64,000 nt of DNA from Flavobacteriales bacterium (GTDB lineage: Bacteria; Bacteroidota; Bacteroidia; Flavobacteriales; CAJXXR01). Each line of letters opens with the position of its first letter. The first letter of the stretch is position 1. The notes beneath the pieces are model-generated. The model worked only from the letters and a program-made list of their open reading frames with translations. It did no database searches and had not been told where the DNA came from. The stretch covers positions 48,208-112,207 of the forward strand of contig CBDEVQ010000092.1 of the NCBI GenBank assembly GCA_965243605.1. The letters are read 5' to 3'. Below are positions 6,001 to 58,682 of the stretch, in pieces. Position numbers and translations under genes: made by a program.

Positions 6001-6008
6001 TTAAGTAG
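1..6008 (+). CDS. Giant multidomain secreted protein, 5'-truncated by the window edge (PKD repeats, CUB-like module, two GEVED-like modules, T9SS C-terminal sorting domain)
   Basis: The frame of ORF 123..6008 stays open back to base 3 (SSGVFTVTLNITGDALCGNVSDSTTIVDYIEV, which looks like the end of a PKD module). The GTG at 123 is therefore not the true start. Four W(D/E/N)FGDG..NP.H.Y PKD signatures are present. There is a CUB-like block, TAGTLFDSGGP...YIRVYDGADNTG. Two GEVED-like ends are present (QQLDYRITL; AQYEDYSVYV). The C-terminus is LYPNPNSGTFTV...GQYIIKAKL...KITIIK. Confidence 0.9.
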   Translation, partial: SSGVFTVTLNITGDALCGNVSDSTTIVDYIEVGELEPLTPVSCNTPFTYNSSAKVNYLKLGGLEHYPNINQALVDYTCANDISVQVGTKIPFYFTANGSIDKMNIFIDYDNSGSFTENEEVYNDYLSGVSAFDSIVLFTSQTAIEYNTPLRMRVILSENETSDGCSQIGVTGSSIGQQLDYRITLLENENPPIADLSFVDLSPNNGAQFTINDTIQFLDISQNLPENYYWEFPGGEPLTSTEENPKVTYSNPGFYGANLKVDNSFGVDSIAKTHLFQVTNNINICETSSSNVTAGTLFDSGGPLWNYDDNENCSFLIDPGCAESITLSFSSFHTRNYYDYIRVYDGADNTGILILEHSGAILPGDAIALSGKMYIEFTSGPYYTNYSGWVANWYSTVPSTTPVADFTTIDTIFPLNYPIHFSESASSHIQLMDWDFGDGTTSQEFNPTHQYTTQGLKEITLSVYNCFEYDTITKYIYIDASPQIEIIQDTIQVDIHCATDTTVSFDVTNTDGGDLYFEAHSNNSITDTLSVLILANGMNQSCLDTIASYVTENIEKSQIEFKVCSTAAEIELGLADKDLVILPRIYINGSVKSALSLELNEFVNDGRRVLMLGSDWDDVMHSTSTYSYSSNSVIPVVINEHPIIDSIPIIGGNGYKYAKNFTHPDYFSILEHEVVWYAGKDLVGILPKGDGEVYYLGYEYNCNFFPSASDYAKTMFNSTINYIYREVVPTWLNVDEPYQLLGLNDTTTVFFDINTAGMYEGHHFDSIQVYSNDSANPVTQVFVDVNIESAYDLQTIDTLNLASIYQFGTVSDSFEISNNACETIVFDSITFDHTNVTISQSSDSILGYEEHTFVLTYSSDSSEVIHEHIKFYYDGQVKDILILAECIPAAILTYSPPTIIDSVQQCNDSVITTFTLYNLGENPLSGTLLREDSLSVFEGAGLKFFEGFESTYTNHWLQTAPNTFNTLLDPSINSNVLHVNYPTNSNQTLYRPIEENAIDYIAFTMNRSYSQATNAKLSIGSGGATPTAGICEIQFRNGQTRFRFGGGNYRNYYTNTSIYYHVEFKNINYELKTFDLYINENLLESNVSFFDESVVNNQIALESGTTLSSSRRLYIDDIKVGNFQNSFWMNSVDTIQINPGDSQQIELTLLSEGLNEGWYNGYISFNTNAINFDDSINVQFKVTGDPVLEIPNLWKSLESVQQYDTKRDSVIVYNTGCSELEITSIANLRSEYTLSYSSNLVPPDDSAWVYIDFAPLTVDIFEDTITVYTNNNTSYFYLTGESDGLAILHLDAYNTVLTGSECDGEQSIELDIHNLGSIPLLTEINKITRFTDNFESNIISSFWEYSDGIEVGAGCGTIAGQNSLIFNGGGIRVLESKTIRITEETVFSYKVKSGDEECNTPSGSMYFKLYYSLDNGVNWILHQQFYPYASSVNPVNITETFSDDMLNKPIRFKFEQDNHDGNQTDIWMLDDVRIIDYSSALGDISVLPGDSLNFTTSVNYSDFSNGLNILKYSLESNDPINPIQTYICSLYVNAPPCANFTPELSTPCSGTVNMNAFYRNLPSTVTWEFGDASNSIDTYPVHEYESSGTHTITMYACNANGCDTIVKSIQVLEIIGARSNACIPTATLTAIGDVVEFKLGNIFNETTSNGFNHEDFTCTDTTTLIPGADYKFEIKTAKASNKHIAIWLDLNNDGTFQDSELLYDKPQITTPLVDSIFIPITAEREKPLRLRVMSDRRNAQVTPCMGLEAQYEDYSVYVSNSKIIPEPRFSYVETDLCLGTFEFNNTSYYTPDTYYWNFGDGTYSNEENPIHTFGDRKPYNVSLTVGNSVGNKTLTQQITPNRPSSQVEVIAKDLSVNNPIVFSVDSSEFTDAIWDFNTGNTYTGLQVSVNLPIAKVYPYSIQLMHVTGCEQLYKDTFDLSVVNETFLPLYPNPNSGTFTVEAPIKDYYVFDSMGNEVYRFIGDTYISNQIVRLNHLADGQYIIKAKLENQQTRMAKITIIK

Positions 6009-6407: not shown

Positions 6408-6524
6408 TTAAGCGGCAATGTAAAATCCGGAGAAATAAATCTTTCAAACTTCCCAAGTGGACTGTATAGCATTCAATTTAAAGATGCCACTATGGTTAGA
6501 TCTATAAAATTTGTATTAAATTAA
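6408..6524 (+). pseudogene. Orphan 3' fragment of an array gene (last ~38 codons of the alpha-type CTD plus stop) at the left edge of the array
   Basis: It reads LSGNVKSGEINLSNFPSGLYSIQFKDATMVRSIKFVLN*. The canonical 17-nt spacer ttaacaattagagcgtt and the A1 ATG follow. No upstream coding part and no start codon are present. Confidence 0.85.
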
Positions 6525-6541
6525 TTAACAATTAGAGCGTT

Positions 6542-8461
6542 ATGAGAATACTAACCATATTAAGTTATTTATTTTATTTATGTATTAGTTTGAATGGGAA
6601 TAGCCAAACCATCACGGTTCAGAATTTAGACGATTCAGGAATAGGTTCTCTGCGTAATGCTATTTCTAATGCCAATTCAGGCGATACCATACGTTTTAAT
6701 CCCATGTTAATTGCTCAAGGGAGTGATACTTTGGTACTAGATACAGTAATAAATATTGATAAAGATTTGGTAATAAATGGACTTTATGATAGCGAGGATA
6801 CCTTGTTTTTGTCTTCTAAAACAAATAGAAGTATATTCTTTGTTGATTCTGTAGATAATATATTGCTTGATAGCCTTTGTTTGTTAGCAGATACAAGTGA
6901 TAATATTGACCCCTATATCACTTATTTTGTTTATTCAAATGTATTAGTTTCAAATTGTTTTTTTAAAGGGTACACCAAAATTATTTTACATACTTGGCAG
7001 TCAAATTTGACCATTGTTGGTTCGATGGTTTTGGGATTACATTCTCCACAATCATTTCCTAAAATAAGTTATGCAACGCAAGGTGATATTTTTAGAGAAT
7101 GTAATATAACGAATTCGGTGTTTAAGTTAGAAAATTCAAATAGCACAGGTTTCTATATAGAAACTGGAGGTAATAAGATAAATAACAACATACATATAGA
7201 AAATTCTTACTTTTCAAATTTCAAAACACTAATTTATGGTCTTAATACTGTAAATGTTGTAAAGAATACATTTAATAATTCTTTGATTAAGACAGGTGAA
7301 CCCAATAGAGGTTTTTATACCAGAAATATTGCATTAACTGTAAAAGCTTCAACCTTTACTATTACAGATAGTAACAGAGTACAAAATACAATTTTAAGCA
7401 TAGGAACGCCTTACGGACCTATTGAGCCAATTCCACTAGATACTATTAAGTTAAATTTTACAAATTGTACATTTAATGGAGGTCTTTATGAAGATACTCT
7501 TTATGGGAGCTTTACTGATAGTAATTATTTGGATTACTTCGGTCCAGACTTAGATGAGCTAAAAATAACAAGTTGTATTTTTAATGATATTAACGGATTT
7601 AACGAATTGCCTATAGACTCTTCAGGAGGATATAATCTATTTAGTTTTCCTCAAAATATTGGCTTAGATTCAACAGACCAAACCAATGTTCTGGTGTCTG
7701 ATATTAACTTGGGACCCTTACAAAACAATGGAGGGTATACACCTACACATCTACCAAACTACCAATCTTTAGCGTTTAATTCGGGTAATCCGAACGATAC
7801 AAGCTCAGCCCAAAACGGAGCCATCATACAACGCCGAGATATTGGGTCAGCAGAAATACAAGCTGTCCTAACCATAGACACAACAGAGCATTGCGGTACA
7901 TCCTATAATTGGCGAGCAGACACCCTTACCGAAACAGATATTCATTTTGATTTTGAAGAATCTACTACAGGAGGGCACGATAGTGTTTTTGCTTTAGATT
8001 TAACCTTAGATTACATGGATGCTCTAGCTATTAGCGATGGTGGAGCCTTACAAGCCAATATCACTGATGCAAGCTATCAATGGATAGATTGTTCAACCCA
8101 TTTACCATTGTTTGGCGAAACCAACCAAACCCTTACACCCAATATAGCGGGAACCTATGCCGTTGTTGTTTCCAATGGAATTTGTACCGATACTTCGGCC
8201 TGTGTATTTATCGATAATTTGAGTGTAGAAGAGCATAACCCAAACCTTCCTCTTATTAGAGTAACCAACCAAACCATATTCTTTAATCCAAGCAATTCTC
8301 TATTATCCCATTATATAATTTACAATAGTCAAGGACAATCCGTTGTAAGCGGCAACGTAAAATCTGGAGAAATAAACCTTTCAAACTTCCCAAGTGGACT
8401 GTATAGCATTCAATTTAAAGATGCCACTATGGTTAGATCTATAAAATTTGTATTAAATTAA
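6542..8461 (+). CDS. Array copy A1: T9SS-targeted right-handed beta-helix family protein (signal a, core class I, hybrid CTD)
   Basis: 639 aa. Signal peptide MRILTILSYLFYLCISLNGNSQ. N-cap TITVQNLDDSGIGSLRNAISNANSGDTIRFNP (CSLREA-like). C-cap LGPLQNNGGYTPTHL...QRRDIGSAEIQ (choice-of-anchor-Q-like). The first half of the CTD is unique (HNPNLPLIRVTNQTIFF...); the second half is alpha type. The core is unique apart from a tail shared with A6 (PLDT(I/L)KLNFTNCTFNGGLYEDTLYG). Confidence 0.9.
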   Translation: MRILTILSYLFYLCISLNGNSQTITVQNLDDSGIGSLRNAISNANSGDTIRFNPMLIAQGSDTLVLDTVINIDKDLVINGLYDSEDTLFLSSKTNRSIFFVDSVDNILLDSLCLLADTSDNIDPYITYFVYSNVLVSNCFFKGYTKIILHTWQSNLTIVGSMVLGLHSPQSFPKISYATQGDIFRECNITNSVFKLENSNSTGFYIETGGNKINNNIHIENSYFSNFKTLIYGLNTVNVVKNTFNNSLIKTGEPNRGFYTRNIALTVKASTFTITDSNRVQNTILSIGTPYGPIEPIPLDTIKLNFTNCTFNGGLYEDTLYGSFTDSNYLDYFGPDLDELKITSCIFNDINGFNELPIDSSGGYNLFSFPQNIGLDSTDQTNVLVSDINLGPLQNNGGYTPTHLPNYQSLAFNSGNPNDTSSAQNGAIIQRRDIGSAEIQAVLTIDTTEHCGTSYNWRADTLTETDIHFDFEESTTGGHDSVFALDLTLDYMDALAISDGGALQANITDASYQWIDCSTHLPLFGETNQTLTPNIAGTYAVVVSNGICTDTSACVFIDNLSVEEHNPNLPLIRVTNQTIFFNPSNSLLSHYIIYNSQGQSVVSGNVKSGEINLSNFPSGLYSIQFKDATMVRSIKFVLN

Positions 8462-8478
8462 TTAACAATTAGAGCGTT

Positions 8479-10371
8479 ATGAGAATACTAACCATATTAA
8501 GTTATTTATTTTGTTTATGTATTAGTTTGAATGGGAATAGCCAAACTATAACTGTTCAGAATTTAGACGATTCAGGGATTGGTTCTCTGCGTGATGCTAT
8601 TTCTAATGCCAATTCAGGCGATACCATACGTTTTAATCCAATGTTACTATCACAAGGGAGTGATACCTTGGTGTTAGATACAGTAATTAATATTGATAAA
8701 GATTTAGTGATAAAAGGGCTTTATGATGATGAGGATACGTTGTTTTTGTCTGTGTCAGACAATCAGTCATTCTTCCTTGTTGATACTGTTGAAAGTTTTA
8801 CGCTTGATAGTGTTGTTTTAATATCGTCAATAAATAATACTCCAAGTACATGGATTATAGTTTTTGAATCATTAATTAATATAGATAATTCTATTTTTAG
8901 AGGAGCTAAAAGTACTGTATTGATGTTATCAGAATCTCCATTTATAATACAAAATAGTTTTTTTTCTATAAACAATTTTCTAGTTTTTGGAGGAACACCC
9001 AATATTATTACTTGCGGATTTAATACAGATAAATTAAGGACAATAAGAATAGAATCTACTATATTTCAGGTTATTGGTGCTTCAAATGGACTTGATGTGA
9101 GATTTACAAGTAATCAGGATAGTAATAATGTAATAATTAGGAATTGTTATCTTAATAATTTTAGGAGTTTGTTATTTGGCCATTTTCGTGTAGAAATAAT
9201 AAATAGTACTTTTAATAACTCTCCTTTTGATATTGGTCACCCAATGATATCAGGGGGTATTCCTGAAAGAAATGCTTTTATTTTGGCTAACACTTCGACT
9301 TTTTCTTTAACTGATATTGGATATTTACAAAACCCTATCTCTTGTATAGGTTCACCAACAAACCCTTTTGATCCACCTCCTTCAGATATATTTGAATTAC
9401 AATTTAATAATTGCACTTTCAATGGAGGAACTTATGACAGCAATTCCTATGAAGATTACTTCGGTCCAGACTTAGATGAGCTAAAAATAACAAGTTGTAT
9501 TTTTAATGATATTAACGGATTTAACGAATTGCCTATAGACTCATCAGGAGGCTATAACTTATTTAGTTTTCCTCAAAGCATAGGTTTAGATTCAACAGAC
9601 CAAACCAATGTTCTGGTGTCTGATGTCAACTTAGGACCATTACAAAACAACGGAGGGTTTACACCAATACATCTACCAAACTACCAATCTTTAGCGTTTA
9701 ATTCGGGTAATCCGAACGATACAAGCTCTGCTCAAAATGGAGCCATTATACAACGCCGAGATATTGGGGCAGCAGAAATACAAGCTGTCCTAACCATAGA
9801 CACAACAGAGTATTGCGGTACATCCTATAATTGGCGAGCAGACACCCTTACTGAAACAGATATTCATTTTGATATTGAAGAGTCTACCAATGGTGGATAC
9901 GATAGTGTTTTTGCTTTAGATTTAACCTTAGATTACATGGATGCTCTAGCCATTAGCGATGGTGGAGCCTTACAAGCCAATATTTCTGATGCAACATACC
10001 AATGGATGGATTGTTCAACCCATTTACCATTGTTTGGCGAAACCAACCAAACCTTTACACCCAGTATAGCGGGAACCTATGCGGTTGTTGTTTCCAATGG
10101 AATTTGTACCGATACTTCGGCCTGTGTATTTATCGATAATTTGAGTGTAGAAGAGCAGGTGCAATCCTTTGTATTTGTAAAGAATCATGTTTTGTATTTT
10201 AACGGGTTAGAAAATGCAGAGTTTAACATCTATAATAGCCTTGGGCAGAATATTTTAAGCGGCAATGTAAAATCCGGAGAAATAGACCTTTCAAACTTCC
10301 CAAGTGGACTGTATAGCATTCAATTTAAAGATGCCACTATGGTTAGATCTATAAAATTTGTATTAAATTAA
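8479..10371 (+). CDS. Array copy A2 (signal a, core class II, CTD alpha)
   Basis: 630 aa with the same architecture. The core is homologous to B4 (both begin LSVSDNQSFFLVDTVESFTLDS). The last ~305 aa are identical to A3. Confidence 0.9.
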   Translation: MRILTILSYLFCLCISLNGNSQTITVQNLDDSGIGSLRDAISNANSGDTIRFNPMLLSQGSDTLVLDTVINIDKDLVIKGLYDDEDTLFLSVSDNQSFFLVDTVESFTLDSVVLISSINNTPSTWIIVFESLINIDNSIFRGAKSTVLMLSESPFIIQNSFFSINNFLVFGGTPNIITCGFNTDKLRTIRIESTIFQVIGASNGLDVRFTSNQDSNNVIIRNCYLNNFRSLLFGHFRVEIINSTFNNSPFDIGHPMISGGIPERNAFILANTSTFSLTDIGYLQNPISCIGSPTNPFDPPPSDIFELQFNNCTFNGGTYDSNSYEDYFGPDLDELKITSCIFNDINGFNELPIDSSGGYNLFSFPQSIGLDSTDQTNVLVSDVNLGPLQNNGGFTPIHLPNYQSLAFNSGNPNDTSSAQNGAIIQRRDIGAAEIQAVLTIDTTEYCGTSYNWRADTLTETDIHFDIEESTNGGYDSVFALDLTLDYMDALAISDGGALQANISDATYQWMDCSTHLPLFGETNQTFTPSIAGTYAVVVSNGICTDTSACVFIDNLSVEEQVQSFVFVKNHVLYFNGLENAEFNIYNSLGQNILSGNVKSGEIDLSNFPSGLYSIQFKDATMVRSIKFVLN

Positions 10372-10388
10372 TTAACAATTAGAGCGTT

Positions 10389-12269
10389 ATGAGAATACTA
10401 ACCATATTAAGTTATTTATTTTGTTTATGTATTAGTTTGAATGGGAATAGCCAAACTATAACTGTTCAGAATTTAGACGATTCTGGGGTTGGCTCTTTAC
10501 GTGATGCTATTTCTAATGCCAATTCAGGTGATACCATCCGTTTTAATCCAATGTTACTATCACAAGGGAGTGATACCTTGGTGTTAGATACAGTAATTAA
10601 TATTGATAAAGATTTAGTGATAAAAGGGCTTTATGATGATGAGGATACGTTGTTTTTGTCTTCTTTGGAGAATAGACGTTTGTTCCATTTTGATACAGTA
10701 GATTATGTACTACTTGATAGCCTGTTTTTTGTGGCAGATACAAGTAATGATGCTGATGATTATGTAATTACTTTTCTACATTCAGAGGGTTTTATTTCAA
10801 ATTCTTTTTTTAAGGGATATAATAAAAATGTTTTAGTTTCTTGGCAATCATCTTTGAATCTTTATGGGTGTTTTTTAAACAATGATATAAATACTAATGC
10901 ATCTATTGTCTTTTTGTCAAATGGAGATAATCTTTGCATTTTGAACATTACGTCTACATATATACAAAATAACGGTGTTGGATATGATTTTGATATAAGA
11001 TTAGCAGGAAATAAAAATAATAATCACATTATTATAGAAGATTCGTACTTTAAAAATTCTAAAAGTTTATATTTCGGTCATTTATTTACCGAAATAAGGC
11101 GTAGTACGTTTGAAAATTCAACAATTGATATTGGTCATGAATCTGTTATTGGTGGAACGAGCGAAAGAGACATTACATTGAATGTCATGAGCTCTACATT
11201 TTCTATTTCTGATTCTACAGATAATAAAAATAGTATATCTTGTATAGGTACACCTTATGGACCAATAGAATCTCCTCCTTTAGATTTTTTTCAGTTACAA
11301 TTTAAAAATTGCACATTTAGCGGAGGTGTATATGATAGTGCTTCATACGAAGATTATTTCGGCCCCGATTTAGATGAACTAAAAATAACAAGTTGCATAT
11401 TCAATGATATTAACGGATTTAACGAATTGCCTATAGACTCATCAGGAGGCTATAACTTATTTAGTTTTCCTCAAAGCATAGGTTTAGATTCAACAGACCA
11501 AACCAATGTTCTGGTGTCTGATGTCAACTTAGGACCATTACAAAACAACGGAGGGTTTACACCAATACATCTACCAAACTACCAATCTTTAGCGTTTAAT
11601 TCGGGTAATCCGAACGATACAAGCTCTGCTCAAAATGGAGCCATTATACAACGCCGAGATATTGGGGCAGCAGAAATACAAGCTGTCCTAACCATAGACA
11701 CAACAGAGTATTGCGGTACATCCTATAATTGGCGAGCAGACACCCTTACTGAAACAGATATTCATTTTGATATTGAAGAGTCTACCAATGGTGGATACGA
11801 TAGTGTTTTTGCTTTAGATTTAACCTTAGATTACATGGATGCTCTAGCCATTAGCGATGGTGGAGCCTTACAAGCCAATATTTCTGATGCAACATACCAA
11901 TGGATGGATTGTTCAACCCATTTACCATTGTTTGGCGAAACCAACCAAACCTTTACACCCAGTATAGCGGGAACCTATGCGGTTGTTGTTTCCAATGGAA
12001 TTTGTACCGATACTTCGGCCTGTGTATTTATCGATAATTTGAGTGTAGAAGAGCAGGTGCAATCCTTTGTATTTGTAAAGAATCATGTTTTGTATTTTAA
12101 CGGGTTAGAAAATGCAGAGTTTAACATCTATAATAGCCTTGGGCAGAATATTTTAAGCGGCAATGTAAAATCCGGAGAAATAGACCTTTCAAACTTCCCA
12201 AGTGGACTGTATAGCATTCAATTTAAAGATGCCACTATGGTTAGATCTATAAAATTTGTATTAAATTAA
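10389..12269 (+). CDS. Array copy A3 (signal a, core class III, CTD alpha)
   Basis: 626 aa. The core is homologous to B5 (SSLENR..F..DTVDY.LLDSL...IRLAGNKNNN). The C-terminal half is identical to A2. Confidence 0.9.
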   Translation: MRILTILSYLFCLCISLNGNSQTITVQNLDDSGVGSLRDAISNANSGDTIRFNPMLLSQGSDTLVLDTVINIDKDLVIKGLYDDEDTLFLSSLENRRLFHFDTVDYVLLDSLFFVADTSNDADDYVITFLHSEGFISNSFFKGYNKNVLVSWQSSLNLYGCFLNNDINTNASIVFLSNGDNLCILNITSTYIQNNGVGYDFDIRLAGNKNNNHIIIEDSYFKNSKSLYFGHLFTEIRRSTFENSTIDIGHESVIGGTSERDITLNVMSSTFSISDSTDNKNSISCIGTPYGPIESPPLDFFQLQFKNCTFSGGVYDSASYEDYFGPDLDELKITSCIFNDINGFNELPIDSSGGYNLFSFPQSIGLDSTDQTNVLVSDVNLGPLQNNGGFTPIHLPNYQSLAFNSGNPNDTSSAQNGAIIQRRDIGAAEIQAVLTIDTTEYCGTSYNWRADTLTETDIHFDIEESTNGGYDSVFALDLTLDYMDALAISDGGALQANISDATYQWMDCSTHLPLFGETNQTFTPSIAGTYAVVVSNGICTDTSACVFIDNLSVEEQVQSFVFVKNHVLYFNGLENAEFNIYNSLGQNILSGNVKSGEIDLSNFPSGLYSIQFKDATMVRSIKFVLN

Positions 12270-12286
12270 TTAACAATTAGAGCGTT

Positions 12287-14182
12287 ATGAGAATACTAAC
12301 CATATTAAGTTATTTATTTTGTTTATGTATTAGTTTGAATGGGAATAGCCAAACCATCACGGTTCAGAATTTAGACGATTCTGGGGTTGGCTCTTTACGT
12401 GATGCTATTTCTAATGCCAATTCAGGTGATACCATCCGTTTTAACCCTATGTTACTTTCACAGGGAAGTGATACTTTAGTATTAGATACAGTGATTAATA
12501 TTGATAAAGATTTAGTGATAAAAGGGCTTTATGATAGCGAGGATACCTTGTTTTTAACTACAGGAGACAATCAATCATTTTTTTATATTGATTCAGTAGA
12601 AAATCTAATTATTGATAATTTGGTATTTATATTTGATTCTATATTTTTAATTAGTAATCATGATTTTATAAATGCGCGGAATTCAAAAGTAAAATTATCA
12701 AATTCAATATTTAGAGGGAATAGAGATGAAATTTTGTCTTTTTGGCAATCTTCATTAGAAATATTGAATTGTAAATTCAATATTAAAATGACTGAACAAT
12801 ATAGTTCATTAATAGTTTATTTGACAAATGGCGAAAGTTATAGAGAATTTAAGATAATAAACTCTTTATTAAAATTAAATGGTGAAATATTAGGGAATAG
12901 TATTGATATAAGACTTAAGGGAAATAAAAATAATAATCATTTTATCATAGAAAATTCATACTTTAAAAATTCTAAAAGTTTATATTTCGGTCATTTAATA
13001 ATAAATATCAATCAATGTACATTCGAAAATTCACCTATTGATATTGGGCATGGACTTATGGGAGGTGTTACAACTGAAAGAGATATTACATTGAATGCAA
13101 TGAGTTCGACATTTTCTATTTCTGATTCGACAGATAACCAAAATAGTATCTCTTGTATAGGTACACCTTATGGACCAATAGAATCTCCTCCTTTAGATTT
13201 TTTTCAGTTACAATTTAAAAATTGCACATTTAGCGGAGGTGTATATGATAGTGCTTCATACGAAGATTATTTCGGTCCCGATTTAGATGAACTAAAAATA
13301 ACAAGTTGTATTTTTAATGATATTAATGGCTTTAATGAATTACCTATTGACTCTTCAGGTGGATATAACTTATTTAGTTTTCCTCAAAGCATAGGATTAG
13401 ATTCAACAGACCAAGCTAATGTTCTGGTGTCTGATATTAACTTGGGGCCCTTACAAAACAATGGAGGGTATACACCTACACATCTACCAAACTACCAATC
13501 TTTAGCGTTTAATTCGGGTAATCCGAACGACACAAGCTTTGCCCAAAACGGAACCATCATACAACGCCGAGATATAGGAGCTGCAGAAATACAAGCTGTC
13601 CTAACCATAGACACAACAGACTATTGCGGTACATTCTATAATTGGCGAGCAGACACCCTTACCGAAACAGATATTCATTTTGATATTGAAGAATCTACTA
13701 CAGGAGGGTACGATAGTGTTTTTGCCATAGATTTAACCTTAGATTATATTGATGCTATAGCCATAAGTGATGGAGGCGAATTAACAGCCAATAGTTCTGA
13801 TGCGACCTACCAATGGATGGATTGTTCAACCCATTTACCATTGTTTGGTGAAACTAACCAAACCCTTACACCCAGTATAGCGGGAACCTATGCGGTTGTT
13901 GTTTCCAATGGAATTTGTACCGATACTTCGGCCTGTGTATTTATCGATAATTTGAGTGTAGAAGAGCAGGTGCAATCCTTTGTATTTGTAAAGAATCATG
14001 TTTTGTATTTTAACGGGTTAGAAAATGCAGAGTTTAACATCTATAATAGCCTTGGGCAGAATATTTTAAGCGGCAATGTAAAATCCGGAGAAATAGACCT
14101 TTCAAACTTCCCAAGTGGACTGTATAGCATTCAATTTAAAAATGCCACTATGGTTAGATCTATAAAATTTGTATTAAATTAA
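12287..14182 (+). CDS. Array copy A4 (signal a, chimeric core IV/III, CTD alpha)
   Basis: 631 aa. The first part of the core resembles A5/B1 (RNSKVKLSNSIFRGNRDEILSFWQSSLEILNCKF). The second part resembles A3 (NKNNNHFIIENSYFKNSKSLYFGH...SSTFSISDSTDNQNSISCIGTPYGPIESPPLDFFQLQFKNCTFSGGVYDSASYE). Confidence 0.9.
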   Translation: MRILTILSYLFCLCISLNGNSQTITVQNLDDSGVGSLRDAISNANSGDTIRFNPMLLSQGSDTLVLDTVINIDKDLVIKGLYDSEDTLFLTTGDNQSFFYIDSVENLIIDNLVFIFDSIFLISNHDFINARNSKVKLSNSIFRGNRDEILSFWQSSLEILNCKFNIKMTEQYSSLIVYLTNGESYREFKIINSLLKLNGEILGNSIDIRLKGNKNNNHFIIENSYFKNSKSLYFGHLIININQCTFENSPIDIGHGLMGGVTTERDITLNAMSSTFSISDSTDNQNSISCIGTPYGPIESPPLDFFQLQFKNCTFSGGVYDSASYEDYFGPDLDELKITSCIFNDINGFNELPIDSSGGYNLFSFPQSIGLDSTDQANVLVSDINLGPLQNNGGYTPTHLPNYQSLAFNSGNPNDTSFAQNGTIIQRRDIGAAEIQAVLTIDTTDYCGTFYNWRADTLTETDIHFDIEESTTGGYDSVFAIDLTLDYIDAIAISDGGELTANSSDATYQWMDCSTHLPLFGETNQTLTPSIAGTYAVVVSNGICTDTSACVFIDNLSVEEQVQSFVFVKNHVLYFNGLENAEFNIYNSLGQNILSGNVKSGEIDLSNFPSGLYSIQFKNATMVRSIKFVLN

Positions 14183-14199
14183 TTAACAATTAGAGCGTT

Positions 14200-16113
14200 A
14201 TGAGAATACTAACCATAATAAGTTATTTATTTTATTTATGTATTAGTTTGAATGGGAATAGCCAAACCATCACGGTTCAGAATTTAGACGATTCTGGGGT
14301 TGGTTCTTTACGCGATGCTATTTCTAATGCCAATTCAGGCGATACCATCCGTTTTAACCCTATGTTAATTGCTCAAGGGAGTGATACTTTAGTATTAGAT
14401 ACAGTAATAAGTATTGACAAAGATTTAGTGATAAAAGGGCTTTATGATAGCGAGGATACCTTGTTTATGTCTGCATTAGATAATCAGAATTTGTTTTTCA
14501 TAGATAGTGTTGAAAGTATGGTTATGGATAGTTTAGTTTATCATATTGGCTTAATAAATACTTTTACAAGTTCCGATTTATTTCGGGTGCGTAATTCAAA
14601 CGTTCAAATATATAATTCAATATTTTTGGGGCATAGAGATGAAGTATTATCTTTTTGGCAATCGTCTTTAGAAATTTCAAATTGTAAGTTTATTAGTTTA
14701 GAGAGTTTATATTCGAGTTCTATTATTATATTTTCAACGAATGGGGATGTGCCAAGAGAGCTTAGGGTTATTAATTCTGAATTTGAATTTAATAATACTC
14801 TCACTTCTAAAGTTATTATTAGAACTGGTGGTGATAAAAGTAATAATCTTATTTATTTTAAAAACGCCTATTTTTCTAATATCAAGACTTTGATTTATGG
14901 CCACAATACTATTGATATTTCTAATTGTACTTATGAAAATGCTCATATACAAACAGGTGAACCTTCAGTTGGGTTTGCATTTATTAGAGATATTACATTA
15001 ACTGCAAAATCATCAACTTTTACTATTACTGACACTAATCAAGTCCAAAATACAATTTTATGTATAGGAACACCTTATGGACCTATTGAACCTGTTCCTT
15101 TAGATGTCCTTGAGTTAAATTTAATAAATAGTACGTTTAATGGTGGAATTTACGAAGACGTTATTTATGGAACTGGTTATGATAGTAATTATTTGGATTA
15201 CTTCGGTCCCGATTTAGATGAACTAAAAATAACAAGTTGTATTTTTAATGATATTAATGGCTTTAATGAATTACCTATTGACTCTTCAGGTGGATATAAC
15301 TTATTTAGTTTTCCTCAAAGCATAGGATTAGATTCAACAGACCAAGCTAATGTTCTGGTGTCTGATATTAACTTGGGGCCCTTACAAAACAATGGAGGGT
15401 ATACACCTACACATCTACCAAACTACCAATCTTTAGCGTTTAATTCGGGTAATCCGAACGACACAAGCTTTGCCCAAAACGGAACCATCATACAACGCCG
15501 AGATATAGGAGCTGCAGAAATACAAGCTGTCCTAACCATAGACACAACAGACTATTGCGGTACATTCTATAATTGGCGAGCAGACACCCTTACCGAAACA
15601 GATATTCATTTTGATATTGAAGAATCTACTACAGGAGGGTACGATAGTGTTTTTGCCATAGATTTAACCTTAGATTATATTGATGCTCTAGCCATAAGTG
15701 ATGGAGGCGAATTAACAGCCAATAGTTCTGATGCGACCTACCAATGGATGGATTGTTCAACCCATTTACCATTGTTTGGTGAAACTAACCAAACCCTTAC
15801 ACCCAGTATAGCGGGAACCTATGCGGTTGTTGTTTCCAATGGAATTTGTACCGATACTTCGGCCTGTGTATTTATCGATAATTTGAGTGTAGAAGAGCAG
15901 GTGCAATCCTTTGTATTTGTAAAGAATCATGTTTTGTATTTTAACGGGTTAGAAAATGCAGAGTTTAACATCTATAATAGCCTTGGGCAGAATATTTTAA
16001 GCGGCAATGTAAAATCCGGAGAAATAAACCTTTCAAACTTCCCAAATGGACTGTATAGCATTCAATTTAAAAATGCCACTATGGTTAGATCTATAAAATT
16101 TGTATTAAATTAA
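14200..16113 (+). CDS. Array copy A5 (signal a, core class IV, CTD alpha)
   Basis: 637 aa. The core is homologous to B1/B3. The C-terminal ~305 aa differ from A4 at only ~3 residues. Confidence 0.9.
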   Translation: MRILTIISYLFYLCISLNGNSQTITVQNLDDSGVGSLRDAISNANSGDTIRFNPMLIAQGSDTLVLDTVISIDKDLVIKGLYDSEDTLFMSALDNQNLFFIDSVESMVMDSLVYHIGLINTFTSSDLFRVRNSNVQIYNSIFLGHRDEVLSFWQSSLEISNCKFISLESLYSSSIIIFSTNGDVPRELRVINSEFEFNNTLTSKVIIRTGGDKSNNLIYFKNAYFSNIKTLIYGHNTIDISNCTYENAHIQTGEPSVGFAFIRDITLTAKSSTFTITDTNQVQNTILCIGTPYGPIEPVPLDVLELNLINSTFNGGIYEDVIYGTGYDSNYLDYFGPDLDELKITSCIFNDINGFNELPIDSSGGYNLFSFPQSIGLDSTDQANVLVSDINLGPLQNNGGYTPTHLPNYQSLAFNSGNPNDTSFAQNGTIIQRRDIGAAEIQAVLTIDTTDYCGTFYNWRADTLTETDIHFDIEESTTGGYDSVFAIDLTLDYIDALAISDGGELTANSSDATYQWMDCSTHLPLFGETNQTLTPSIAGTYAVVVSNGICTDTSACVFIDNLSVEEQVQSFVFVKNHVLYFNGLENAEFNIYNSLGQNILSGNVKSGEINLSNFPNGLYSIQFKNATMVRSIKFVLN

Positions 16114-16126
16114 TAATTAAAACGTT

Positions 16127-18040
16127 ATGAGAATACTAACCATATTAAGTTATTTATTTTGTTTAGGTATTAGTTTTAATGGGAATAGCCAAACCATCAC
16201 GGTTCAGAATTTAGACGATTCTGGGGTTGGCTCTTTACGTGATGCTATTTCTAATGCCAATTCAGGCGATACCATCCGTTTTAATCCCATGTTAATTGCT
16301 CAAGGGAGTGATACTTTAGTATTAGATACAGTAATAAGTATTGACAAAGATTTAGTGATAAAAGGGATTTATGATAGCGAGGATACCTTGTTTTTGACTT
16401 GTATTAATAATCAAATGTTTTTTTTAATTGAAAGTATTGAGCTTTCAATGGATAGTATGATTTTTACATCTGCGTATTATAATTATTCAAATACATATTT
16501 TCTATATTTAAGAAACTCTGAAGTAAATATTTTAAATTCAAAATTCTTAGATTTTTCAGAAACGGTTCTATCTTCAGAACAATCGAATTTAACTATTAAT
16601 AATAGTTCATTTTTTTGTGACAGCTTATATTCACATTATCCTTTGGTATACCTAACTCAAGGTGATACGTTAAGAAAACTAAAAATTATAAAGTCAAAGT
16701 TTTTAATAAAGGAAAAGAATACAGTTGGTATAGTAGTTAGAACAGCTGGAAATAAGGAGAATAATAAGGTGATTATTCAAGATTCATATTTTGAAAATTT
16801 TGAAACATTAATATATGGTCATAACACCATAGATATTCAATATTCAACATTTAATAATTCACTAATTAAAACGGGAGAGCCTTATGTGGGGTTTGCATAT
16901 ATTAGAGATATTACATTAACTGTAAAATCTTCAACCTTTGCAATTACAGATTCTAATCAAGTTCAAAATACGATTTTATGTATTGGTACACCTTATGGAC
17001 CTATTGAGCCAGTTCCTTTAGATACTCTGAAGTTAAATTTTACAAATTGTACGTTTAATGGAGGTCTTTATGAAGATACTCTTTATGGGAACTTTACTGA
17101 TAGTAATTATTTGGATTATTTCGGCCCCGATTTAGATGAACTAAAAATAACAAGTTGTATTTTCAATGATATTAACGGATTTAACGAATTGCCTATTGAC
17201 TCTTCAGGTGGATATAACTTATTTAGTTTTCCTCAAAGCATAGGATTAGATTCAACTGACCAAGCTAATGTTCTGGTGTCTGATATTAATTTGGGGCCCT
17301 TACAAAACAATGGAGGGTATACACCTACACATCTACCAAACTACCAATCTTTAGCGTTTAATTCGGGTAATCCTAACGATACCATTTCTGCTCAAAATGG
17401 AGCCATTATACAACGTAGAGATATTGGATCAGCTGAAATACAAGCTATACTTACTGTAGATACTACTGAATATTGTGGCGAATTTTATGATTGGAGAGGG
17501 CAAATGTTAACCGAATCAGCTATCTATTCAGATATAGAAGTATCTACAACAGGATTAGATAGTGTTTTTGCCATAGATTTAACCTTAGAGTATTTAGATG
17601 CCCTAGCCATAAGTGATGGAGGCGAATTAACAGCCAATAGTTCTGATGCGACATACCAATGGATGGATTGTTCAACCTATTTACCATTGTTTGGCGAAAC
17701 CAACCAAACCCTTACACCCAGTATTGCGGGAACCTATGCGGTTGTTGTTTCCAACGGAATTTGTACCGATACTTCGGCCTGTGTATTTATCGATAATTTG
17801 AGTGTAGAAGAGCAAGAAGAATATTATGTTTTTATAAAAGATAATGTACTTCATCTTAATGGGATTAGTAGTATCAAAATAGATTATATTATTTATAACA
17901 GTTTAGGACAAAAGGTACTTCACTCAAATACCTCACAAGAAAAACAAGACCTCTCTTATTTAGAGTCAGGTGTCTATTATATTAGATTAATATCTGATAA
18001 AGTGAATGATAAAAAGTATAATAAATTTATTATTAAATAA
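16127..18040 (+). CDS. Array copy A6, last gene of block A (signal a, core class V, CTD gamma)
   Basis: 637 aa. The core segment TQGDTLRKLKIIKSKFLIKEKNTVGIVVRTAGNKENNKVIIQDSYFENFETLIYGHNT is shared with B6. The CTD ...DLSYLESGVYYIRLISDKVNDKKYNKFIIK differs from alpha and resembles the CTD of the 18529..23949 gene. Confidence 0.9.
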   Translation: MRILTILSYLFCLGISFNGNSQTITVQNLDDSGVGSLRDAISNANSGDTIRFNPMLIAQGSDTLVLDTVISIDKDLVIKGIYDSEDTLFLTCINNQMFFLIESIELSMDSMIFTSAYYNYSNTYFLYLRNSEVNILNSKFLDFSETVLSSEQSNLTINNSSFFCDSLYSHYPLVYLTQGDTLRKLKIIKSKFLIKEKNTVGIVVRTAGNKENNKVIIQDSYFENFETLIYGHNTIDIQYSTFNNSLIKTGEPYVGFAYIRDITLTVKSSTFAITDSNQVQNTILCIGTPYGPIEPVPLDTLKLNFTNCTFNGGLYEDTLYGNFTDSNYLDYFGPDLDELKITSCIFNDINGFNELPIDSSGGYNLFSFPQSIGLDSTDQANVLVSDINLGPLQNNGGYTPTHLPNYQSLAFNSGNPNDTISAQNGAIIQRRDIGSAEIQAILTVDTTEYCGEFYDWRGQMLTESAIYSDIEVSTTGLDSVFAIDLTLEYLDALAISDGGELTANSSDATYQWMDCSTYLPLFGETNQTLTPSIAGTYAVVVSNGICTDTSACVFIDNLSVEEQEEYYVFIKDNVLHLNGISSIKIDYIIYNSLGQKVLHSNTSQEKQDLSYLESGVYYIRLISDKVNDKKYNKFIIK

Positions 18041-18528: not shown

Positions 18529-21500
18529 ATGAAGATCAAAAAAGAACTCATTTTAATGCTATGTTTTGTAATGGGAAGTACCCACAGTATAGCACAAACC
18601 AGTACAACCTTATCCTACAATGGTAGTGATGAAGTGATTAAAAACCCTGAGCGCGGGTTAAGTTATAAAGCAGGGTATGTCGATTTATTTGTCGATGGGT
18701 ATTCTTATGATGGAGCTGTATCCTATCAATGGACTCATGAATTTCCTAACACAGCAAATACAACTCCACCAAGTTTTATTTCACGGTTTAGGAAAGATGC
18801 AGGAAATCACATACAAGAATTGCCAATTGGGTATCAATTTAAATCTACAGCACCTGATGGATTAATTACAGTGGATTCAGATTTAGATTTACCATTACAA
18901 GGGAATGATGAGTTACAAATTAGTTTTCCAAATCCTATGAATTCGAGTTATGATAATAGTTCTGATTTAGTGATAATTCATTATACAGATAATACAGCTA
19001 ACTCTAGAACAGTAAAATATAAAGCATTTCCAAGCGGAGTAGCAGGAAACTATAATGGGGGCTATGGGGATTTTGTTGCACCAGGTAATAATACTATATT
19101 TTCTAAAATAAACATTAGGAATATATCTGGTATTGGTGGACAAATTCAATCATTTTATGTTTTTCAAAATGATAATATTGCTGGTAATGCACCAATAGAA
19201 ATAGACATGAACGAACCGGTTATTTTAGAGTTAAGGTCGGATATCGAAGCATTTACGATAAACCACATAGACCGTTCAGGTGTTTTAGAAAATCGTATAG
19301 AATGTTCATCGCCACATATTGAACAAGCTGCTGACCAATTGAACAATTTTGAGGTTCGTACAGAGTTGTCATATAACCAAATACCTTTAGATATAAGTAC
19401 AGGAAGTTTAAGTACACCGTTTGGGAATCAGATAACGTATAACAACTCTAACCACAGCTTAAATATTACCGATGCTTTTTTTGATGCCCAAACCTATCAG
19501 CAAGCCAGTAATAACAATATTGAGTTAGACCAATGTTATATAGAAGAAAATGGTATCTCTTTAGTTGAACTTGAAGAGTATATTCATTTTTCAGAAGATA
19601 ATATTACGGCATCCTCGCCTCAATACCAATTAGAAACGGCAAGTGTTAATCGTACAAACAATGCGTTTAATCAAATTAAAAATCACGGATTAAAAGCCCA
19701 TCAGGTTACCAATTCAGATTTTAAGATGACGGCAAATAATCATATCTATAATGTGCCAGACGATGAACATTTCACGTATTTACAAAACATAATGGATGAA
19801 ACCAATACTGAAATCTATTCAGGTAATAATAGTCTTATCGCATTAAATACATTGGGGTGGATAAAAGACCAAGAAGATGCTAGTTTATATCGTCTTTCTC
19901 CAACATGGTTAAAAACATCAAAAGATAAGCATTACCTACATTCTGGTCAAGATGCATATTATGGTGAGTTTTTACCCAATGAAGAAAACACTCTACGTTC
20001 TAGCCACCAAAGGTCTTTATTTAGATACTCAGCAGCTGCATCTAACCCGAACTTTACAGGAAACGGATTTAACTCTAGTGGTATTGCAGCAGATGTAAAT
20101 ATTCAGCACTATCAGGAAACAGTCATGAAAAAAGTAAAAAACTATTTTCCTAATAAAAAAATGCTAACCGATATGGTTGTGGCATGGGAACATAAGTTTA
20201 CCTATCCACAAAACGGAGGAACCTATGACGATGCTGGAGAAGATGAGTTTGATGTAAACCCAAACCTTGGATATTACGATGATATGTTTGCCACAACCTA
20301 TGAGTATTTAGGAACTATTTGTGATGAACCACAATTTCATTCAGTTTCAACAGATTTTACATCTGATGGTAAAAAAGATTTATTCGTATTAGGAAAGTAT
20401 AGCGATAATTTTTGGATGCATGCTGATATGCCTTTATACTTTGACGATGCAACTTTTGGACAATCTTTTGGGGCAATGTCTAGCAACTGGACAAATAATG
20501 GACAGTTTGATTACGAAGCTCTTAAGGGAATGCTTACAGCATCGGATGAAGAGCAAAACCCATTTTTAGCAGCAAAAAAATTATTCCGTTTTAACTATAC
20601 CTCTTTTGATGTAACGTATAACAACTCAGAAACAATAGGGAAAAATATTTTTGAATTTGTAGAGCCAAACGGAAATGGAGCGATTGATAAATGGAAAAGC
20701 ACAGCAATAACACAGGCTGATGCTGATCAATACCAATTACCATATTCAACAGGATATTTTACACATGATAATAAATCGGTGTTCGATTATATTCGTGACC
20801 ATTTGGGGTATCGTTTAGAACTGCAGAACTTAGAAACAGAAATACAAGGAAATAATCTAACCGCAAAATTCCATATTCAAAATAAAGGATTTTCAGCACC
20901 TAAAAACCCAAGACAAATTTATGCGGTGCTTTTAGATGAGCAAGGACAACAAGTGCAACAACTACCTGTGAATATAGATGCTAATGAGTGGTTATCATGG
21001 ACAACCGATGCAAATTTAGATATTAAAAAAAATGATATAAACGGAACAAATTATACCGACTATACGTTAGAGGATGATTTTGACCCTATTAATTACAATA
21101 CCCATACAGTTCAAGCGACCTTTGATATGTCAGGTTTAACAACCTATGCTACATATTCTATAGCCTTATGGATGCCAGACCCCTCGGCAGATTTAAACAC
21201 TGCATCTAACCAAGTGGATTATGCTGTTAAATTAGCTAATAGACCAATTTCTATTGGTGCTCGTGGAGAAAATATTGTAGCGAGTTTTAAACGAGGTGTA
21301 AATCAAATGAATTTACCATCTAAATATATCTCTGCAAATACCTTAATAATCAATCAAAATGCTACATGGGCGTCTTTAATAGAACATAATAGAAATATTA
21401 CTATTCCTAATGGAAGAACACTTACCATTACCGGAACCCTTAAAATGCCGCAAGGCACAAAAATTCAAGTTCTAGAGGGAGGAAAACTAATTGTAAACGG

Positions 21501-23963: not shown

Positions 23964-24010
23964 GTAAGCCCAAGGTGTTTAAAACCTTGGGCTTACCTAT
24001 TTATTTATAA
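23964..24010 (+). terminator. Rho-independent terminator after the 1806-aa gene
   Basis: GTAAGCCCAAGGT-gtttaaa-ACCTTGGGCTTAC gives a 13-bp perfect stem, followed by ctatttatttat. Confidence 0.75.
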
Positions 24011-25948: not shown

Positions 25949-25988
25949 CAACAACTATTCATTTTTAAATTATATAAACCTAAACCGT

Positions 25989-27872: not shown

Positions 27873-27885
27873 TAATTAAAACGTT

Positions 27886-29799: not shown

Positions 29800-29816
29800 T
29801 TAACAATTAGAGCGTT

Positions 29817-31712: not shown

Positions 31713-31752
31713 CAACAACTATTCATTTTTAAATTATATAAACCTAAACCGT

Positions 31753-33657: not shown

Positions 33658-33674
33658 TTAACAATTAGAGCGTT

Positions 33675-57815: not shown

Positions 57816-58682
57816 TTGGAATATTCAGCAACCTATTGTGTCGAGAAGATGTGTAAGTCTTTAAATATAAGTTCTAATGCGTATTATTCATGGAAACGTA
57901 GGCTAGATATAGAACGTTCTAGCATCACAATAGAATTAAAAGAGTCTATTCAAGCGGTTTATGCAGAAAATAGAGGATTGTACGGAGCTCCTAAACTCCA
58001 AAAAGCTCTAGAGAGAAAAGGTGTTTTTTACTCGAGGTCTTATATTTCTAGATTGATGAAAGAAATGGGGCTATATTCTAAGACACGTAGGAAATTTACT
58101 AATACAACGGACTCAAATCATAGTCATAGAGTAGAAGAAAATCATTTAGATCGGAATTTTGAGGTATTAGAACTTGGGAAAGTATGGGTATCGGATATTA
58201 CTTATATCAAAGTTAATCAGACCTGGCAATATTTAACTACAATGATTGATTTAGCAGACCGTAAGGTTGTAGGGTGGTCTGTAAGTTCTAATCTAACAGC
58301 TACAGATACTGTTATTACAGCTTGGAAACATGCGCGATTAAATCGAAATATAGAAGATGACTTTATATTACACTCGGATCGTGGAGTACAATATACATGT
58401 GATGATTTTAAACAGATTATTAACTTAAATACAAAAGCGAAACAATCTATGAGTAGAAAAGGAAATTGCTGGGATAATGCCGTTGCCGAGTCTTTTTTTA
58501 AAACAATTAAAACTGAACTATGCTACCTCATTACATTTGAATCTAAGAAACATTTGGAGACCGAAATCTTTAAATATATGAACTGGTATAATAACTCTAG
58601 ATTACACTCTACTCTAGACTACAAAACACCTACCGAAAAAGAACAAGAATTAAGATACAAACAAATTAAACGAGTGGCTTAA
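57816..58682 (+). CDS. IS3-family transposase OrfB (DDE/rve catalytic part), probably expressed as an OrfAB fusion by -1 frameshifting
   Basis: The orfB frame is open from 57756, which covers the A6G site. DDE residues lie in the contexts WVSDITYI, HSDRGVQYT and NAVAESFFKTIKTE. Confidence 0.9.
   Translation: MEYSATYCVEKMCKSLNISSNAYYSWKRRLDIERSSITIELKESIQAVYAENRGLYGAPKLQKALERKGVFYSRSYISRLMKEMGLYSKTRRKFTNTTDSNHSHRVEENHLDRNFEVLELGKVWVSDITYIKVNQTWQYLTTMIDLADRKVVGWSVSSNLTATDTVITAWKHARLNRNIEDDFILHSDRGVQYTCDDFKQIINLNTKAKQSMSRKGNCWDNAVAESFFKTIKTELCYLITFESKKHLETEIFKYMNWYNNSRLHSTLDYKTPTEKEQELRYKQIKRVA

Follow-up and report, generated by a model that had tools for sequence, protein, structure and literature searches.

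The window analysed here, a 64-kb (64,000-nucleotide (nt)) stretch of a contig from a Flavobacteriales bacterium, contains two six-gene tandem arrays, A1-A6 and B1-B6. All members are co-oriented, complete open reading frames (ORFs) of 626-639 amino acids (aa), and encode paralogous proteins with a sorting domain of the type IX secretion system (T9SS). Two of them, A4 and B6, are considered in detail, as their variable cores appear to be assembled from segments related to different sister copies. The arrays and their genes are as follows.

6542-18040, + strand: array A, six full-length paralogs with spacers of 13-17 nt
6542-8461, + strand: A1
8479-10371, + strand: A2
10389-12269, + strand: A3, partner of the A4 3'-core tract
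12287-14182, + strand: A4, 631 aa; signal peptide, beta-helix with variable core, choice-of-anchor Q C-cap, immunoglobulin (Ig)-like region and T9SS C-terminal sorting domain
14200-16113, + strand: A5
16127-18040, + strand: A6, partner of the B6 tract
24035-35588, + strand: array B, six full-length paralogs with spacers of 13-40 nt
24035-25948, + strand: B1
25989-27872, + strand: B2
27886-29799, + strand: B3
29817-31712, + strand: B4
31753-33657, + strand: B5
33675-35588, + strand: B6, 637 aa; composed of at least 8 segments that differ in their nearest paralog

Each paralog is built of the same parts in the same order: a signal-peptide-like leader, a conserved N-terminal region, the variable core (approximately aa 88-330), a choice-of-anchor Q region, an Ig-like stretch and a T9SS type A sorting domain. 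The hydrophobic N-terminal leader is visible by eye, and the signal peptide was assigned on this basis rather than with a predictor. The choice-of-anchor Q model NF041518 matches A4, B6 and B2 at aa ~380-440 with scores above its curated cut-off of 25 bits (34.1, 30.0 and 31.6, respectively). For the sorting domain, A4 and B2 exceed the 23-bit cut-off of TIGR04183 (25.9 and 27.3 bits) and B6 falls just under it (22.6), while the PF18962 scores (20.6-22.6) are under the cut-off of 27. The AlphaFold2 models show a right-handed three-stranded beta-helix at aa ~23-345, with a regular three-strand periodicity (strands PB1, PB2 and PB3 of each coil) and predicted local distance difference test (pLDDT) values of 80-95 in this region (whole-model values 74 for A4 and 70 for B6). 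The top Foldseek matches are the PL6 lyase 6qps, RbmB (9ozl), AlgE4, polygalacturonases and phage tailspikes (E values of 7e-5 to 1e-3); the TM-scores are low (0.28-0.47) despite probabilities of ~1.0. Together, the conserved caps and the modelled helix indicate that the variable core corresponds to the central coils of the beta-helix.

Relatives obtained by protein search comprise the window's own paralogs and six close relatives, and the loci were fetched for three of the latter: R1 (L019 and L020, with protein P0001), R2 (L021, with P0009 and P0007) and R3 (L022, with P0016). At greater distance, a scan of genome contigs finds family relatives with 27-50% identity in metagenome-assembled genomes (MAGs) of Flavobacteriales/Salibacteraceae, and tandem arrays of the same family occur in more distant Flavobacteriales MAGs as well. 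In one of these (L001, 4481-22281) there are at least six tandem members, including a 2013-aa ORF with two N-cap motifs; judged by sequence, this ORF looks like fused units, and the family seems to be arranged in tandem as a rule. As an independent replicate of core mosaicism the L001 array proved unsuitable, its paralogs being too diverged to score (10-50% aa identity in the core). PF02415 (Chlam_PMP) has no match at E<=0.01 in A4, B6 or B2 and is found only in distant homologues (P0019-P0028); distant homologues also carry PF13229. The contig index gave no exact match to A4, B6, P0013 or P0017, and scans of metagenome contigs with protein patterns and with a conserved 26-mer were likewise empty.

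The A4 core was described in the initial annotation as class IV (compared there with A5 and B1) followed by class III (compared with A3). The core positions and the sequence motifs quoted there for A4 and B6 are correct, and the order of the two affinities in A4 stands, but the class IV affinity is confined to 12668-12777, and two stretches (columns 265-390 and 501-618 of the alignment) resemble no other copy. The segments of A4 are the following.

~12548-13270, + strand: variable core (alignment columns 265-1035)
12668-12777, + strand: class IV-like segment (columns 391-500), the only part with affinity to A5/B1/B3; 70-82% nt identity, 96% bootstrap
12867-12902, + strand: old junction zone, where dense mismatch to A3 ends; aa 198-205, in a PB2-PB3 loop, mid-coil
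12903-13150, + strand: class III-like segment, old; 72-90% identity to A3, 98% bootstrap with A3/B5/P0007
13151-13275, + strand: recent conversion tract, equal to A3 11238-11362 with 0 mismatches in 125 nt; P0001 reaches only 87-91% identity over this tract
13271-13756, + strand: segment equal to A5, 486 nt with 0 mismatches

In sliding windows of 60 nt, the best match of A4 is to A5/B1/B3 (55-82%) at 12614-12790, to A3 (rising from 78 to 100%) at 12896-13250, and to A5 (100%) from 13286 onward. MaxChi, run on informative sites restricted to the core, places a breakpoint between A5-like and A3-like sequence at 12883/12884 (informative sites 76:45 to the left and 20:118 to the right; permutation p<=0.0005). 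Segment-wise neighbor-joining (NJ) trees agree with this, and group A4 with class IV (A5, B1, B3) at 96% bootstrap for columns 391-500 and with class III (A3, B5) at 98% for columns 631-855. Going 5' from 13151, the identity to A3 falls gradually to 72-84% by ~12903 and then collapses at 12867-12902, while the switch from A3 to A5 is at 13271-13276, on the border of core and C-cap. The same internal junction also separates P0001 from P0007 in the related strains. Outside of the recent tracts, the “parents” named for A4 and B6 are relatives at 55-90% identity. Only the last 125 nt of the A4 core (13151-13275) are a recent copy shared with A3.

In B6, a class III-like start was proposed to give way to a class V-like segment shared with A6, and this is borne out by both MaxChi (34130-34137) and the segment trees (87-100% bootstrap). 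The segments are the following.

~33936-34670, + strand: variable core
33936-34130, + strand: class III-like 5' core; 75-90% identity to B5/A3/A1, identical to none
34130-34137, + strand: class III-like/class V-like junction, placed by MaxChi; aa 152-154, at the turn from PB3 to the next PB1, in the conserved WQS motif
34137-34204, + strand: eroded class V-like stretch, older; 68 nt, ~75% identity to A6/P0016
34205-34513, + strand: recent conversion tract shared with A6 (16654-16962); 2 mismatches in 309 nt, aa 178-279
34504-34669, + strand: segment nearest to A5 (15035-15200); 6 mismatches in 166 nt, 100% bootstrap
34665-34725, + strand: segment nearest to B2, with the GESIDSLS variant, at the start of the C-cap

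The best match in 60-nt windows passes from B5/A3/A1 (75-90%; 33942-34110) to A6 (92-100%; 34170-34500), then to A5 (95-98%; 34506-34620) and finally to B2. MaxChi gives a first breakpoint, between B5 and A6, with site counts of 68:10 to the left and 15:192 to the right, and a second, between A6 and A5, at 34503-34514 (116:5 and 4:23); both have permutation p<=0.0005. The trees place B6 with class III at 87-92% bootstrap for columns 265-500, with A6 at 98-100% for columns 501-855, and with A5 at 100% for columns 856-1035. The A6 core is itself ~2% diverged from its orthologue P0016 upstream of column ~590 and ~8-10% downstream, the 5' edge of the A6/B6 tract being at column 558. A1 (6542-8461) combines a 5' core that is class III-like (68-85% nt identity to B6/A3/B5) with a 3' core nearest to A6 (89-95% at columns 901-1035); judged by sequence, it seems to be a third chimera, built in the manner of B6.

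The longest concordant runs of polymorphic sites in a GENECONV-style run-length permutation are 148 (B6-A6), 74 (A4-A3) and 32 (B6-A5), each with p=2e-4, and the pairwise homoplasy index (PHI) test on the core gives p=0.001. The best-match parent thus changes along both cores by every measure used (60-nt windows, MaxChi, segment trees, run lengths and PHI), and the cores are, as first proposed, recombinant mosaics with junctions inside the hypervariable region. The older layers might alternatively be described without recombination, the class IV and class III affinities of A4 then reflecting shared ancestry and uneven rates of divergence along the core. This would suit the modest identities (55-84%), the diffuse character of the older junctions, which are off the local peaks of identity, and the two stretches in which A4 matches no class. 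It is nevertheless improbable, since incompatible groupings in the segment trees reach 96% and 98% bootstrap, both MaxChi and PHI give significant results, and the tracts of 99-100% identity are left unexplained.

The mosaic structure is not limited to the cores. A map of 95%-identity groups shows a patchwork along the whole gene, so that breakpoints are not special to the core, the leader, the caps, the Ig-like region and the C-terminal sorting domain being patchworks to the same degree. Long exact tracts join A2 with A3 (885 nt), B1 with B3 (758 nt) and A4 with A5 (486 nt), and near-exact tracts stand beside stretches of 50-60% identity. At the level of 70% aa identity, class III-like first coils are followed by at least four different continuations (in A3, B5, B6/A1 and P0017), which indicates that core segments have been reassorted; the last two core segments come in only 3-6 types, common to several 5' classes. 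Among the 12 copies, the conserved flanks have a median synonymous divergence (dS) of 0.55-0.78 and a ratio of nonsynonymous to synonymous divergence (dN/dS) of 0.05-0.07, while the core has a dS of ~1.2 (synonymous saturation) and a dN/dS of 0.4-0.57. The high dS and low dN/dS of the flanks imply that the copies are old and that the caps are kept constant by purifying selection, not by wholesale homogenization. Patches of zero divergence are superimposed on this old, diverged background.

Junctions had also been proposed to be at the coil boundaries of the beta-helix, and this is not supported. The positions of eight junction intervals were read off the DSSP strings for the A4 and B6 AlphaFold models. 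Two of them coincide clearly with a PB3-to-PB1 turn (aa 152-154 of B6, and aa 177-178 of B6 at the end of PB3), and a third, the 3' edge of the R1/R2 difference described below (aa 248-267), is a wide interval that takes in such a turn together with PB3 and the start of the next PB1. Three are in or over the PB2-PB3 region (A4 aa 198-205, A4 aa 273-288 and B6 aa 277-280), and two fall within the long core-closing loop (A4 aa 328-330 and B6 aa 328-332). As PB3-to-PB1 turns make up 27-32% of the residues in the mapped region (non-strand residues, ~50%), 2-3 junctions of 8 are what chance would give. Homologous exchange in register keeps the register of the helix wherever it ends, and so a constraint to coil boundaries is not needed. 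In terms of local identity between the parents, the recent junctions are at the 80th-97th percentile and the old ones at the 25th-57th (8 junctions being too few to conclude); the recent junctions thus tend to be in locally conserved stretches, as homologous recombination would predict.

The related strains give an indication of the age of these layers. Between the window and R1/R2, the neighboring genes (Rrf2, RIC, NorB, P-type ATPase and PrsW) are 92-98% identical, with a proportion of differing synonymous sites (pS) of 0.08-0.21 (NorB, 96.3-96.5% nt identity and pS of 0.155-0.165), and the genomic baseline taken from neighboring orthologues is a pS of 0.16-0.20. P0001 of R1 (L019, 3304-5205) has the entire A4-type core, with 87-100% nt identity over columns 226-855 that is continuous across the class IV/III junction. 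For A4 and P0001, the pS amounts to 0.11 (5' core) and 0.24 (3' core), compared with 0.50-0.54 in the flanks, as between random paralogs. The core divergence is thus like that of orthologues, which indicates that the A4-type core was inherited while the frame around it has changed. A6 and P0016 have a similar relationship (pS of 0.06 in the 5' core and 0.42-0.59 in the flanks). On these comparisons, old core types persist across strains while their flanks do not, the internal A4 junction at ~12867-12902 is ancient, predating the split from the related strain, and the A4 core is an inherited, stable type. The proposal that new cores are made from existing ones therefore holds insofar as segments are reassorted, but A4 is not a freshly made example, as P0001 carries the whole core across the junction. 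That such recombination multiplies the repertoire beyond the number of classes is a reasonable inference.

At the 3' end of the core (columns 856-1035), P0001 is 87-91% identical to A4 and shares other variants with P0007, the A3-like gene of R2. In the NJ tree, A3 and A4 group together (97% bootstrap) inside a wider group of A3, A4, P0001 and P0007, which points to a continuing, lineage-specific homogenization of the 3' core.

In P0001, the leader resembles that of B1 and the sorting domain that of B6; its gene is the sole paralog between DUF4832 and Rrf2, an interval with six paralogs in the window (24035-35588). A single paralog follows the DUF4832 gene in all three relatives (L019, 3304-5205; L021, 7980-9872; L022, 9805-11721), with three differing core types; it is bounded by Rrf2 in R1 and R2, and the R3 contig ends before Rrf2. 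The combination of B1-like leader and B6-like sorting domain in R1 and R2 is that expected from a deletion by unequal recombination, or from assembly collapse. The sorting-domain region of A6 is 85-96% identical to that of P0009 (L021, 197-2122), which has the same position as last gene before DUF4832 in R2. The A6 core is class V and the P0009 core is class IV, while in R3 it is the gene following DUF4832 that has the class V core (P0016). The position of a core type thus differs from genome to genome.

R1 and R2 are 99.5% identical in NorB and DUF4832 and have 0 mismatches per 50 nt on either side of the single paralog. Inside the paralog, mismatches are dense at columns 255-630 only, moderate at columns 638-771 and sparse beyond, and the step from dense to moderate at column ~630 coincides with the A4-A3 junction. 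If the contigs are faithful, replacement of a core block, ending 3' in the hypervariable region, would have taken place over no more than 0.5% of genome divergence. Alternatively, the assemblers may have taken differing paths through a multi-copy array. Against such a path artefact, the Logan and JGI contigs agree, the leader has a small patch of differences of its own, and the break in the R2 contig is within an upstream paralog, not at the compared gene.

A related concern is that the mosaics in the window are themselves artefacts of assembly, either from mis-joined reads of near-identical copies or from short-read polishing that homogenized the paralogs. Exact repeats of up to 885 nt between paralogs, which are beyond short reads, and an unstated assembly method would allow this. 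The 5' cores of A4 and B6, however, are unique and were not copied from any paralog, and the A6/B6 tract differs at two positions. In addition, the complete A4-type mosaic with its junction is present in two contigs of another strain (JGI and Logan, possibly from the same sample), and the protein database entry P0010 is B6 as it stands in the window. We therefore regard an assembly origin as extremely improbable.

The strain comparison also bears on where the segments came from. Some of them may have been imported from other strains by homologous recombination (allelic replacement), and not copied from a paralog in the same genome. The 3' part of the R1/R2 gene block is ~20% diverged between flanks that are 99.5% identical, the class III-like 5' core of B6 has no close donor in the window, and core types are shared across strains with orthologue-like divergence but at different positions, all of which would fit import. 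The 99-100% tracts, on the other hand, have partners within the window, and 3' cores cluster by genome. We regard import as possible but doubtful; it would complement conversion within the genome and does not exclude it.

Taken together, A4 and B6 are patchworks of sister copies in layers of different age, with core types conserved across strains, and we consider it quite probable that they were produced by interlocus gene conversion (homologous recombination) among co-oriented paralogs. They belong to a 12-copy T9SS beta-helix family in two head-to-tail arrays, with caps held constant by purifying selection and central coils that represent ancient, highly diverged types. General homologous recombination would repeatedly copy stretches between the co-oriented paralogs, and unequal crossing-over would probably alter the copy number alongside conversion. 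Because the exchange is in register, a tract may end anywhere, the core included, and leave the beta-helix intact. The outcome is a gene-wide patchwork of layers: in A4, the part 3' of 13271 is a recent copy shared with A5, and in B6, the recent 309-nt tract shared with A6 is nested in older class III-like and class V-like segments. Some segments would be imported from other strains in addition to those copied among the tandem paralogs. We infer that the mechanism is of the RecA type, that all copies are co-expressed from array promoters, and that there is selection for diversity of surface or binding properties, be it against phage or grazers or for different polysaccharides. The tight spacers and complete copies suggest that the genes are probably co-transcribed.

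Several points weigh against this account. The older junctions are not at local peaks of parental identity (25th-57th percentile), and homologous exchange is only a presumed origin for them. Both partners keep the A6/B6 tract, so that either could be the donor; A6 may be the recipient, the tract being more diverged from P0016 than is the rest of A6. The strain comparison is based on metagenome contigs, which are possibly paths through collapsed arrays, and the assembly and sequencing technology of the window are unstated.

A more specialized mechanism would be programmed variation, in which a dedicated system swaps coils as cassettes at defined coil-boundary sites, in the style of antigenic variation or a shufflon. 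The conserved frames with variable cores in arrays, the different cores at one genomic position in strains that are 99.5% identical, and the two sharp B6 junctions at PB3-to-PB1 turns are all reminiscent of such systems. There is, however, no invertase or recombinase adjoining the arrays, the only integrase-fold gene being an IS3-type transposase at 57816-58682, and the inverted repeats at the arrays are only chance-like AT-rich pairs of 20-28 nt. A silent-cassette layout, with one expression locus and truncated donors, is not seen: all 12 copies are intact, with leader and sorting domain, and the sole fragment is at 6408-6541. Moreover, the junctions fall over various loop types at chance frequency, and the tract ends are graded, not fixed. 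Programmed variation is thus very improbable. The differences between cores include indels and all base types, unlike the variation made by diversity-generating retroelements, and no reverse transcriptase was found among the ORFs scanned (not every ORF was scanned).

The fragment at 6408-6541, upstream of A1, is a 134-nt relic that consists of the last 117 nt of a sorting domain and a 17-nt spacer, with 98.5% identity to the end of A2. An upstream copy was probably lost or truncated here, which would mean that the array has contracted or expanded; the relic and the difference in copy number between strains fit unequal crossing-over. The spacers between paralogs fall into three recurring exact types, each tied to a given upstream sorting-domain type and downstream leader type, so that the junction of gene end, spacer and gene start is itself a shared module. 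An identical 40-nt spacer joins B1 to B2 (25949-25988) and B4 to B5 (31713-31752), and another shared type is found at 16114-16126 and 27873-27885.

Each array is preceded by a gene for a giant T9SS protein, with PKD, CUB and GEVED domains for array A (123-6008) and DUF4832 for array B (18529-23949). The DUF4832 gene has only 85-86% nt identity (pS of 0.41-0.45) to its R2 and R3 counterparts, where neighboring genes are ~96% identical to R1/R2, and thus appears, from these values, to be fast-evolving or recombining too. In R3, an aconitase gene and a MacB/FtsX gene precede DUF4832 (L022, 55-3789) and there is no array A, which raises the possibility that array A and the gene for the PKD/CUB giant protein were inserted in the window, or arose by expansion in its lineage. 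A GC-rich hairpin, AAGCCCAAGG...CCTTGGGCTT, is located at 23966-23994, directly 3' of the DUF4832 gene and 40 nt before B1. It is terminator-like in sequence, and would suggest that array B has its own promoter. A scan for Bacteroidetes-type promoter motifs gave 3 matches, with 0 upstream of array genes, and is uninformative. The transposase at 57816-58682 is of the IS3 family (rve, HTH_21), and is ~22 kb downstream of array B with no evident link to the arrays.

Searches of the literature on T9SS gene conversion, choice-of-anchor proteins and Pmp mosaics turned up no account of the A/B protein family. The closest described system is the tandem leucine-rich repeat (LRR) locus of Flavobacterium psychrophilum (Duchaud 2007; Castillo 2015; re-analysed in PMC10392669), with as many as 19 surface-protein genes head to tail. 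Each of these proteins has a conserved leader and a T9SS signal, the content of the locus is strain-specific between conserved flanking genes, there are signs of recombination, and changes have been reported after phage challenge (PMC10392669). Both systems belong to Flavobacteriia and have head-to-tail paralogs (up to 19 there, 6+6 here) composed of leader, solenoid and T9SS signal, with recombination within the locus. Both are also strain-variable at a syntenic position, in our case with one gene versus six and different cores, the relatives' loci being metagenome assemblies. The two differ in the solenoid, which in the A/B proteins is of the right-handed beta-helix type and has a choice-of-anchor Q cap, where F. 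psychrophilum has an LRR, and in length, which is near constant for A/B (626-639 aa), non-identical coils being swapped in register with the number of repeats unchanged. The A/B junctions fit homologous exchange.

The babA/babB/sabA genes of Helicobacter pylori and the opa genes of Neisseria undergo interlocus gene conversion; they are dispersed, encode beta-barrels or other folds, and belong to host-associated pathogens. As in these families, full-length A/B paralogs trade internal segments to give chimeric surface proteins, with conserved ends that provide homology, whereas the A/B genes are tandem, encode T9SS cargo and are found in an apparently environmental Flavobacteriales-like genome. 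Silent-cassette systems are represented by pilE/pilS of Neisseria, vlsE of Borrelia, msp2 of Anaplasma and tprK of Treponema. The A/B arrays share with them segmental gene conversion and mosaic variable regions between conserved flanks, but have neither a single expression site nor truncated silent donors. The chlamydial Pmp proteins are likewise clustered, strain-variable beta-helix surface paralogs, but these are type V autotransporters, while the A/B proteins are T9SS-secreted and A4, B6 and B2 are without a PF02415 match. Mosaic phage tailspikes and receptor-binding proteins share the beta-helix fold and a modular exchange behind a conserved N-terminal part, but the A/B proteins are cellular T9SS cargo, and the exchange is within the helix and not a swap of the whole domain.

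In a broader and rather unlikely interpretation, the arrays would be a fast-turnover battery of T9SS beta-helix proteins, in which coils serve as in-register cassettes among co-expressed paralogs and strains on a timescale of less than 0.5% genome divergence (as in the R1/R2 example). This would make them the beta-helix counterpart of the F. psychrophilum LRR locus, maintained by frequency-dependent selection from phage, grazers or changing polysaccharide targets, and old core types would persist as a polymorphism shared across strains.

If strain-level replacement is true, the locus would point to strong diversifying selection on an uncultured lineage. A chimera found in one genome can also be an old, inherited type and is not necessarily a fresh product. 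The beta-helix tolerates in-register swaps of central coils between types that are only ~50% identical, with the caps remaining fixed, which is useful for understanding how T9SS surface proteins diversify in environmental Bacteroidota and offers a natural guide for the engineering of beta-helix binders.

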